A stretch of DNA of 64,000 nt from Candidatus Micrarchaeia archaeon (GTDB taxonomy: Archaea > Micrarchaeota > Micrarchaeia > Anstonellales > Anstonellaceae). Positions 57,323 through 58,408 of this stretch are shown in pieces. The notes beneath the pieces were generated by a model. It was not told the origin of the DNA. It saw only the letters and a list, made by a program, of their open reading frames with translations, and did not search any database. The stretch lies in NCBI GenBank assembly GCA_041665945.1, contig JBAYHU010000002.1, positions 43,350 to 107,349 of the forward strand, in the 5' to 3' direction. The position numbers and the translations under genes were made by a program. How positions within the stretch are numbered: position 1 is the first letter of the stretch; each line of letters opens with the position of its first letter.

Positions 57323-58408
57323 ATGCGGCAAATGAAACTCACACCTGCGAAAACACTTATTCTGGCGGGAATCGTCGCTGCAAGCTCGTTCATATTCACA
57401 AGCAAGCTGATGGAAAACAGGCAAATCATGCAGCTCAAGCCGCTGAAAACCGTTGAAAAGATAGTGCCTCTGAAAAAGGCGAAAAAGGAGGATCTCTCGG
57501 CGCCCGTCAGGAGAATCATGCTTTATGTTGAAAAAGAGGGCACAGGCGCCAAGCAAGACACGGTTGCCAAGCAGACAACCGCGCCAGCCCCAATCAGGAA
57601 GCCGACATTGAGCCGGGCAAGGAATTATCTTGTTTCGAAAGGATTTGAAAAAGCCGGAATTGACTCTCTTCTTGCAGACCCGCGCATCGGCAAGGTGAGC
57701 CTGGAATACGCCAAGACGGATACTGTGAAGGGAAAGATGACATATGAAAGATACAAGAAATACTTCAAGCCAGACGAACTTATGAAAAGGGGCCCGGCAT
57801 TCTACCTGTCCAACAAGGAATACCTCGATTCCATGGAAACCGAAAGCGGGGTGCCTAAGTCGCAGGTGCTGTCGCACCACTGGATAGAGAGCTTTTATGG
57901 GGACTCGACAGGAAGCCGCCTGGCAGTGAATGTCCTCCTGACGAGAATGGAGAGAAATCCCGGGCGGTCCGGTTTCGCGCTCAACGAACTTGCCGCCCTT
58001 TTGCGCCTTTGCAAAAAATACAACAAGGACCCGCTCGAGGTCTATGGCTCGGTCTGGGCGGCGATAACACCTGCGCAGGCGATACCGAGCATGCTTGAAA
58101 GATTCGACAAGCGGCACCCGTGCACAAGCTTCGACGAGCTTGTTTCCGCAAGGAATTCCATAGCTTTCATCTTTGATTATCTCATGCGCTCAGGCGCAAC
58201 CGTGAAATCAGGGTACGCCGTCCCGCCTACCCACAAGGCGGCATATGGGAAAAACAGGCAGAAATACTCGAATTACTTGGCTGCGTTCGACTACAACCAT
58301 TCCGAATGGTATGCGCGGCTTGCCATGGAATTCGCCCTGATGATGGAAATGGAGCTTGTGGCTGAGAGATTGGGCTGGCCGGCAAAAACAGGCGCCAGCA
58401 TGTTCTAG
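57323..58408 (+). CDS. Secreted/membrane-anchored lytic murein transglycosylase-like protein (SLT_2 / MltB family)
   Basis: N-terminal signal anchor. GVPKSQVLSHHWIESFYGDSTG contains the MltB-type catalytic ES motif, and the downstream ...GSVWAAITPAQAIPSML... resembles the MltB core. Confidence 0.65.
   Translation: MRQMKLTPAKTLILAGIVAASSFIFTSKLMENRQIMQLKPLKTVEKIVPLKKAKKEDLSAPVRRIMLYVEKEGTGAKQDTVAKQTTAPAPIRKPTLSRARNYLVSKGFEKAGIDSLLADPRIGKVSLEYAKTDTVKGKMTYERYKKYFKPDELMKRGPAFYLSNKEYLDSMETESGVPKSQVLSHHWIESFYGDSTGSRLAVNVLLTRMERNPGRSGFALNELAALLRLCKKYNKDPLEVYGSVWAAITPAQAIPSMLERFDKRHPCTSFDELVSARNSIAFIFDYLMRSGATVKSGYAVPPTHKAAYGKNRQKYSNYLAAFDYNHSEWYARLAMEFALMMEMELVAERLGWPAKTGASMF

Follow-up and report, generated by a model that had tools for sequence, protein, structure and literature searches.

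Our analysis of a 64,000-nucleotide stretch of contig JBAYHU010000002.1 from a Candidatus Micrarchaeia archaeon (assembly GCA_041665945.1; hereafter, the window) reveals that the gene at 57323-58408 on the + strand encodes a true homologue of the family-3 (Pfam SLT_2/CAZy GH103) lytic transglycosylases. We propose, with a probability of roughly 0.6, that the product is a tethered, minimal enzyme that cleaves bacterial peptidoglycan at contact range. The central reading of the original prediction, which had been made from the sequence alone and had recognised an MltB/SLT_2-type lytic murein transglycosylase-like protein in an archaeon, thus holds. It is less novel than had been assumed: lytic transglycosylases of Micrarchaeota (PMC5864196) and other DPANN archaea (PMC8204110, PMC9723730) have been published, and automatic annotation by NCBI of a protein identical to the one analysed here reads "lytic murein transglycosylase". 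What is added here is an old, phylum-restricted clade; a variant that is signal-anchored and lacks the beta domain and the EF-hand of the solved enzymes; a gene position between dnaK and dnaJ in one lineage; and a coupled pair of substitutions, Phe226 to Ala and Ala218 to Trp (Slt35 numbering).

The open reading frame (ORF) is present exactly where the original prediction had placed it, on the + strand, with an ATG start and a product of 361 residues; the JGI gene model starts at an ATG 3 codons further downstream and yields 358 amino acids (aa). A translation check places the peptide HHWIESFYGDSTG at 57875-57913 and the Glu codon within it at 57887-57889. Two database proteins (P0001 and P0009) are 100% identical to the window protein, and the identical protein is on deposit as MFA6489394.1 from a Candidatus Micrarchaeia metagenome-assembled genome (MAG; 239-kb contig). 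The window is core archaeal chromosome: it encodes ribosomal proteins L19e, L32e, S4e, L5e/L18, S5, S8, and L3, an aEF-2-type factor, split RpoA'/A'' and RpoB'/B'', an exosome subunit, and a membrane-inserted LonB. Because of these genes and the identical protein from a Micrarchaeia MAG, the host is a DPANN archaeon of the Micrarchaeota, in agreement with the archaeal host named at the outset. Rfam families and tRNAs were not found in the window.

Homology to SLT_2, for which the original prediction had proposed a profile search, is supported at several levels. Pfam SLT_2 (PF13406) matches with 72.5 bits (gathering cut-off 24.3; E 4.4e-20) and is the sole Pfam match above threshold, with no match to PF01464; the alignment places residues 96-260 on profile positions 6-168 of 292 only. 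A word-indexed search returned seven close relatives (47-100% identity), all seven of which carry a precomputed PF13406 assignment, and an exhaustive hidden Markov model search returned 1868 proteins at E <= 1e-3, with 14 at E <= 1e-30. The window protein belongs to a clade of 20 representatives, the others being P0002-7 and those of P0011-24 that are full-length. In a search of PDB sequences, the single sequence retrieved SltB1 of Pseudomonas aeruginosa (E 5e-10) and Slt35 of Escherichia coli (E 8e-5), and a profile of the 20 clade sequences retrieved the same two proteins with E-values of 7e-35 and 5e-30, respectively.

The predicted fold points to the same family. An AlphaFold2 (AF2) model, computed from the seven close relatives, is of moderate quality (mean predicted local distance difference test score, pLDDT, 69), with values mostly of 75-97 in the core (residues 90-350) and with the first 85 residues disordered or of low confidence. 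A Foldseek search of the PDB with this model placed Slt35 or SltB1/2/3 at all of the top eight positions (E 4e-6 to 8e-4, probability 1.00, TM-scores 0.43-0.55); these were the only matches with E < 1e-3, the next having an E-value of ~1. The model consists of helices only and contains no strand of three or more residues. In particular, residues 93-350 (57599-58372, + strand) form an all-alpha catalytic module that comprises the alpha domain and the lysozyme-like core, and that lacks a beta domain and an EF-hand.

The absence of the beta domain is evident from the alignment. In Slt35 and SltB1, ~55-65 residues separate the motif YL..G from the motif NF..YN(H/R)S, whereas in the archaeal profile the two motifs are almost adjacent, and the profile alignment to SltB1 and Slt35 picks up again at the YNHS motif. 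Among the 150 best representatives of the exhaustive search, the GS-to-YN spacing is bimodal. In the 148-sequence alignment, the distance between the equivalents of Ser216 and Tyr338 is 68-82 in the clade (median 68, also the median in 63 other short forms), whereas the 65 long forms have a median of 127. In the solved enzymes, the missing segment is the beta (C-terminal alpha/beta) domain; its absence explains the half-length Pfam match and fits the strand-free model.

The EF-hand has been lost as well. Specifically, the Slt35 loop Asp237-Asp248 (DFSGDGHINLWD) is replaced by FDKRHPCTSFDE in the window protein, and a DxDxDG-like loop is present in 0 of the 20 clade members, versus 39 of the 63 other short forms and 44 of the 65 long forms. 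By analogy, this loss need not inactivate the enzyme, because Ca2+ is mainly stabilising in Slt35 (PMC8307938) and Acinetobacter baumannii MltB has no bound metal (PMC13134497). The protein's only cysteines, Cys230 (58010-58012) and Cys267 (58121-58123), are invariant in the seven close relatives and occur also in P0011, P0012, and P0019; Cys267 is located in the loop that replaces the EF-hand, and a Cys230-Cys267 disulfide in place of the lost Ca2+ site is conceivable.

The window protein is not an orthologue of MltB, because it lacks the beta domain and the EF-hand and because its score against the MltB equivalog TIGR02282 of NCBIfam, 63.4 bits, lies far below the cut-off of 281.4. Scores against PRK10760 (44.5 versus 449) and MltB_2 TIGR02283 (41.6 versus 248) are below cut-off too. 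The "MltB-like region" that had been described downstream of the catalytic motif is accordingly real in one respect, the C-terminal YNHS..Y motif, and not in another, the beta domain and EF-hand of MltB being absent.

Most active-site residues of the solved enzymes are conserved. Residue numbers of Slt35 were obtained as the chain index of 1D0K plus 39, which correctly places Glu162, Arg187/188, the EF-hand at 237-248, and Tyr338, Asn339, and Tyr344. Glu189 (57887-57889, + strand), the predicted single catalytic acid/base, aligns with 1D0K chain index 123, which is Slt35 Glu162, and with the catalytic Glu of SltB1. This Glu, whose conservation the original prediction had singled out as decisive, is invariant in 148 of 148 aligned sequences. 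Further equivalences are R215 (Arg188), S243 (Ser216), Q252 (Gln225), Y144 (Tyr117), F148 (Phe121), F218 (Tyr191), Y286 (Tyr259), Y324 (Tyr338), N325 (Asn339), and Y330 (Tyr344). The counterparts of Glu162, Ser216, Gln225, Tyr117, Tyr259, Tyr338, Asn339, and Tyr344 are present in all seven close relatives; among the 13 other clade members, which are 29-46% identical to the window protein, each is found in 11-13. The counterpart of Arg188 is present in all seven close relatives. Conservation of the catalytic set down to 29% identity argues for retained catalysis.

The substrate groove is more variable. In Slt35, Glu162 is catalytic and nine aromatic residues (Tyr117, Phe121, Tyr191, Phe192, Phe217, Phe226, Tyr259, Tyr338, and Tyr344) bind substrate (PMC13134497). 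Six of the nine remain aromatic in the window protein (Y144, F148, F218, Y286, Y324, and Y330), and three are replaced (Phe192 by A219, Phe217 by V244, and Phe226 by A253). A new invariant tryptophan, W245, adjoins V244; it corresponds to Ala218 of Slt35, and its appearance is coupled with the loss of Phe226 in seven of seven members of the window subclade. Elsewhere, Phe226 is nearly universal: all 65 long forms have it, as do 57 of the 63 other short forms and 12 of the 13 other clade members. The exchange of Ala218 for Trp together with that of Phe226 for Ala looks like the relocation of an aromatic residue.

Upstream of the catalytic module, the sequence predicts a membrane anchor and a stalk. 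Residues 1-31 (57323-57415, + strand) comprise a basic cytoplasmic tip, a transmembrane helix (~residues 9-27), and the juxtamembrane motif SFIFTSKLMEN, and are predicted to form a signal anchor of N-in/C-out topology. In particular, the N-terminus (MRQMKLTPAKTLILAGIVAASSFIFTSKLMEN) has three Lys/Arg and no Asp/Glu in residues 1-10; the 19-residue window of highest hydropathy in the entire protein starts at residue 12 (12-30), within the sole strongly hydrophobic segment (~9-30); and the AF2 model has a helix at residues 8-31. There is no lipobox Cys, and no Cys at all in the first 229 residues. Juxtamembrane residues F25, K28, and E31 are invariant in the seven close relatives, and the motif recurs in P0011 and P0016; this conservation argues against a cleaved signal peptide. 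Residues 32-92 (57416-57598, + strand) are Lys/Pro/Ala/Thr-rich, variable, and indel-rich in the alignment, with pLDDT < 50 at residues 15-85, consistent with a disordered stalk. The most economical reading of the sequence and the model is an N-in/C-out signal anchor followed by a flexible stalk, with the catalytic head outside the cell. The signal anchor that had been noted at the outset is thus supported by the basic tip, the hydrophobic helix, and the missing lipobox, but the protein would be membrane-tethered and not freely secreted.

The clade is confined to one phylum. All named members of the shell next to the close relatives are Micrarchaeota: Candidatus Anstonellaceae (P0012 and P0016), Micrarchaeia (P0014/P0176), and "Micrarchaeota archaeon" (P0018, P0020, and P0023/P0177). 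In a neighbour-joining tree of 148 sequences, these 20 group together to the exclusion of all others in 55 of 60 bootstrap replicates, and the clade's C-terminal motif NY.AA[FY].YNHS..YA, used as a degenerate DNA pattern against 185,579 GTDB species genomes, was found on 3 contigs only, all from Micrarchaeota. A scan of GTDB species genomes derived from the alignment of close relatives gave 53 pattern matches and 0 confirmed relatives. In the tree, the clade is nested among other short forms, some labelled as DPANN (P0063, Micrarchaeota, with a twin-arginine translocation (Tat) signal; P0083, Nanoarchaeota) and others as bacterial (Marinimicrobia); long forms that are annotated at source as Pseudomonadota lie further out.

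Together, the restriction of the clade, its nesting, a 2011 CAZy census in which none of 101 archaeal genomes but 38% of the bacterial ones had GH103 (PMC3541169), and a near-native composition (GC content 0.52 and GC content at third codon positions, GC3, 0.64, compared with a GC3 of ~0.70-0.78 in the neighbouring genes) indicate that the gene was acquired from bacteria long ago and has since been inherited vertically within the Micrarchaeota. A bacterial origin, as had been suggested, is therefore borne out in the broad sense, by the census and by the long forms from Pseudomonadota, though not as a recent import. No bacterial donor could be named from the phylogeny: the tree neighbours are mostly unnamed metagenomic proteins, with some from DPANN archaea, and the gene context of P0025 (L010) is not diagnostic. 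A viral origin of the SLT_2 protein was considered and rejected, with no IMG/VR relative, no PHROG match, and no PADLOC match; a role in a defence system was rejected as well.

The gene lies inside the grpE-dnaK-dnaJ chaperone cluster of one Micrarchaeota lineage. As had been stated, it directly follows dnaK (Pfam HSP70, 750 bits), from which it is separated by a 167-bp spacer. The order LonB, 186-aa ORF, helix-turn-helix (HTH) gene, grpE, (small ORF), dnaK, SLT_2 gene is kept at four further loci, at which the SLT_2 protein is 62% (L001), 47% (L003), ~40% (L007, an Anstonellaceae MAG), and 36% (L011) identical to the window protein; the spacer between dnaK and the SLT_2 gene is 60 bp in L007. 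In more distant Micrarchaeota (L005/6, L008, and L009), the gene contexts are unrelated. The original prediction had remarked that dnaJ is usually found in this position and had proposed to look for it elsewhere in the genome. It is not lost: dnaJ starts ~6.4 kb downstream, past a copper-resistance cassette and just beyond the end of the window. Specifically, locus L004, which is 100% identical to window positions 56618-64000 over 7383 bp, continues into the N-terminus of a J-domain ORF at the equivalent of position 64768, and we rejected a missing or replaced dnaJ on this ground. In L011, the SLT_2 gene is followed by a 162-aa membrane ORF and then by dnaJ, without the copper cassette; L003 and L004 likewise have this small ORF ahead of dnaJ. 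In the lineage of the window, the copper cassette is inserted between the SLT_2 gene and this pair of small ORF and dnaJ.

The SLT_2 gene likely has its own promoter, because an oligo-T tract and a TATA-like box are conserved between dnaK and the gene. A pyrimidine/oligo-T tract after the dnaK stop codon (57216-57256, + strand), also found in L001 and L003, is a candidate archaeal dnaK terminator, and the TATA-box-like sequence TTTAATATA (57269-57277, + strand), located 46 nt before the ATG and identical in L001, is a candidate SLT_2 promoter. TATA-like boxes occur 30-50 nt upstream of the SLT_2 gene in L003, L006, L007, L008, and L009. Co-transcription with dnaK was also considered; the tract and the box would separate the two genes.

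On the reading that we favour, the product would be a type-II membrane protein, with one N-terminal helix in the archaeal membrane and a flexible stalk of ~60 residues that would carry a catalytic head of ~260 residues outside the cell. The head would be a minimal family-3 enzyme, comprising the alpha domain and lysozyme-like core of Slt35/MltB but no longer the beta domain or the Ca2+ EF-hand. Homology suggests that Glu189 would serve as single acid/base and cut the beta-1,4 bond between N-acetylmuramic acid (MurNAc) and N-acetylglucosamine (GlcNAc) in bacterial peptidoglycan, generating 1,6-anhydroMurNAc ends. Because the enzyme is tethered, its reach would be limited to walls or wall fragments touching the archaeal surface, and for this reason a contact-range role is the most likely one. 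Such a role might consist in opening, attaching to, or harvesting the walls of bacterial neighbours, prey, or hosts, or bacterial necromass, by a metabolically dependent DPANN cell. A single sentence of Chen et al. 2018 has offered the same reading for three Micrarchaeota genomes (PMC5864196), and a comparable one has been advanced for GH23-type giant proteins of Woesearchaeota and Pacearchaeota (PMC8204110, PMC9723730).

Several points weigh against this proposal. Among the solved family-3 enzymes, none lacks the beta domain; the AF2 model rests on only seven sequences and has a mean pLDDT of 69; three of nine groove aromatics are replaced, so that, as far as the alignment tells, the groove is remodelled in the window subclade, which may leave room for altered specificity; and no genes for muropeptide uptake or recycling were seen within the 64-kb window. 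We know of no biochemical evidence for any archaeal GH103 protein and, the known hosts of cultured Micrarchaeota are wall-less Thermoplasmatales (PMC5864196), no bacterial partner being known. Under the main rival reading, the fold and the catalytic Glu would be kept and the substrate would now be a GlcNAc-containing glycan of an archaeal host or of the Micrarchaeota envelope, cleaved for attachment or remodelling at archaeon-archaeon contact. The lack of both beta domain and EF-hand throughout the 20-member clade, the coupled exchange of Phe226 and Ala218 together with the replacement of Phe192 and Phe217 in the window subclade, the long persistence of the clade in a phylum without murein, and the physical interaction of Micrarchaeota with Thermoplasmatales that is described in Chen et al. 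2018 (PMC5864196) are all in keeping with it. Against these stand the retention of Ser216, Gln225, Asn339, Tyr338, and Tyr344; the presence of Phe226 in 12 of 13 other Micrarchaeota clade members; and the frequency elsewhere of short forms without a beta domain, including annotated bacterial ones (Marinimicrobia), for which murein is the obvious substrate. Arg188, moreover, is invariant in the close subclade, and in Slt35 this residue reportedly lies beside the peptide-bearing MurNAc site (van Asselt et al. 2000). We know of no GH103 enzyme with a non-murein substrate, and on balance we consider such a change of substrate unlikely, if well worth keeping in view. Attack on bacteria and repurposing had both been offered by the original prediction, and sequence alone does not separate them.

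Three further explanations have less in their favour. The layout of tether and stalk is adhesin-like, and attachment to bacterial walls has been proposed by Castelle et al. for other DPANN proteins with lytic transglycosylase domains (PMC8204110); a head with weak or no catalytic activity might thus bind peptidoglycan or another glycan and hold the archaeon on a partner cell. Conservation of the catalytic Glu and of Ser216 and Asn339 down to 29% identity is, however, hard to explain without catalysis, which makes a pure adhesin improbable. Still less probable is a specialised lytic transglycosylase of a pilus or secretion apparatus, a variant of repurposing that had also been raised and that finds no support at the locus: the gene has no pilus or secretion genes in its vicinity, whether in the window or in L001, L003, L007, L011, L005/6, L008, or L009, and a murein-less archaeon has no wall of its own to cut for pilus assembly. 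It draws on another locus, L012 (5586-7885), where P0063, a different short-form SLT_2 protein of a Micrarchaeota MAG with a Tat-type signal and a retained EF-hand, starts 24 bp downstream of a gene for a T2SSE/PilB-family ATPase, which hints that some DPANN short-form transglycosylases are linked to pilus-like machinery. Finally, the family is overwhelmingly bacterial and the GC3 of the gene is slightly below that of its neighbours, as might be expected of mis-assembled or mis-binned bacterial DNA or of a very recent, non-functional transfer. At least five independent assemblies, made from different samples and sources and with contigs of up to 442 kb, nevertheless show the gene with the same neighbours (LonB, grpE, and dnaK); archaeal core genes flank it; orthologues at 36-65% identity keep its position; and its composition is largely ameliorated. 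Given this synteny across five assemblies and the near-native composition, we rejected recent horizontal transfer and mis-binning and regard an artefact as having a negligible chance.

If contact-range cleavage of bacterial peptidoglycan is correct, it would bear on the lifestyle of the phylum. Its members have been known chiefly for living as episymbionts on Thermoplasmatales, which have no wall. If an apparently functional ectoenzyme that cleaves murein is conserved across the phylum, many Micrarchaeota may interact with bacteria or live on bacterial wall debris. More tentatively, and with considerable doubt, the long retention of a tethered GH103 enzyme by a lineage of Anstonellaceae-like Micrarchaeota and their relatives may reflect a cross-domain lifestyle on bacteria instead of, or besides, wall-less archaeal hosts, involving attachment to, feeding on, or predation of bacteria. 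The stalked head, without beta domain and independent of Ca2+, would then have evolved to reach the wall of another cell from the outside; as a variant, the window subclade, with its Phe226-to-Ala and Ala218-to-Trp exchanges and conserved Cys230 and Cys267, may have moved to a new glycan substrate. The ~30-kDa ectodomain provides a clonable handle on cross-domain interactions of DPANN archaea. In addition, the clade and the other short forms, some annotated as bacterial, represent a natural minimal MltB fold that could reveal what the beta domain and, in the archaeal clade, the Ca2+ site contribute.

The surroundings of the gene contain further features. Upstream, the chaperone cluster (53277-57155, + strand) comprises grpE (53277-53864; Pfam GrpE), a 110-aa ORF, a foreign low-GC ORF (54214-55257), and dnaK (55254-57155). 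The low-GC ORF, located between the 110-aa ORF and dnaK on the + strand, encodes 347 aa with hydrophobic segments at the N-terminus, has a GC content of 0.375 and a GC3 of 0.376 (~0.56 and 0.70 around it), and is absent from the syntenic loci L001, L003, L007, and L011. It matches phrog_11802, a phage family of unknown function (E 1.8e-23), has no Pfam or PADLOC match, and resembles a mobile or viral orphan gene that was inserted recently. Directly upstream of grpE, a gene kept in all syntenic loci (52808-53263, + strand) encodes a small TrmB/ArsR-like HTH protein, which is a candidate for regulating the grpE-dnaK(-SLT_2) cluster. The 186-aa protein encoded at 52129-52689 (- strand) has a lipobox-like N-terminus (…IILLAGC…) and no Pfam match, is conserved beside LonB at all syntenic loci (with 186-187 aa in L001, L003, L007, and L011), and may be an archaeal lipoprotein. 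A second low-GC block (30001-32000; GC content 0.448 versus ~0.57) lies just upstream of the RpoB genes and contains a 322-aa ORF (30920-31888) with no Pfam match. Downstream, the copper-resistance cassette (58405-63560) encodes a DUF7343/MarR-like HTH regulator (- strand), an HMA metallochaperone, a 240-aa membrane protein, a cupredoxin, a CopA P1B ATPase, and a 261-aa ORF. This first cupredoxin has a Gly/Cys-rich C-terminal tail, and the cassette includes a second cupredoxin; a conserved 165-aa membrane ORF with a CxxC motif lies between the cassette and dnaJ, in the stretch beyond the window that L004 covers (7570-8243).

Comparison with known systems sets the window protein apart from each of them in some respect. 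E. coli MltB/Slt35 and P. aeruginosa SltB1 (PDB 1QUS, 1D0K, 4ANR, and 5O8X) have in common with it the alpha domain and core fold, the catalytic Glu, the GS..Q.xPS motif, and the YNHS..Y motif, and their single-Glu, 1,6-anhydroMurNAc-forming mechanism is probably the same. They differ in having a beta domain and in being lipobox-bearing or soluble periplasmic forms, in contrast to the predicted transmembrane anchor and disordered stalk of the window protein, and in being bacterial, whereas the host of the window protein is an archaeon without murein. A. baumannii MltB (PDB 9VLR, PMC13134497) works without bound Ca2+, a precedent for a protein without an EF-hand; unlike the window protein, it keeps three domains and all nine groove aromatics. 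Similar in length and layout are the short-form SLT_2 proteins of ~260-320 aa (P0025-P0030, P0063, P0083, P0184, and P0189) of other DPANN archaea and of bacteria (Marinimicrobia, for example), which also lack the beta domain and are nearest in the neighbour-joining tree; unlike the window clade, they mostly have a DxDxDG EF-hand (39 of 63), several have Tat or Sec signal peptides, and Phe226, lost in the window subclade, is usual among them (57 of 63).

Among archaeal systems, the three "lytic murein transglycosylase" genes of Chen et al. 2018 (PMC5864196) share phylum, annotation, and proposed role, that of a Sec-exported weapon against bacteria, and probably belong to the clade described here; the one sentence given to them describes no architecture, clade, or synteny. 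The giant extracellular proteins known from Woesearchaeota and Pacearchaeota (Castelle et al. 2015, 2021; Vigneron et al. 2022) are likewise DPANN proteins with bacterial-type murein-cleaving domains that have been read as tools directed toward bacteria. They (fam00969 in Castelle et al. 2021) carry GH23/SLT (PF01464) domains and reach up to ~3000 aa, whereas the window protein is a 361-aa GH103/SLT_2 protein with no PF01464 domain.

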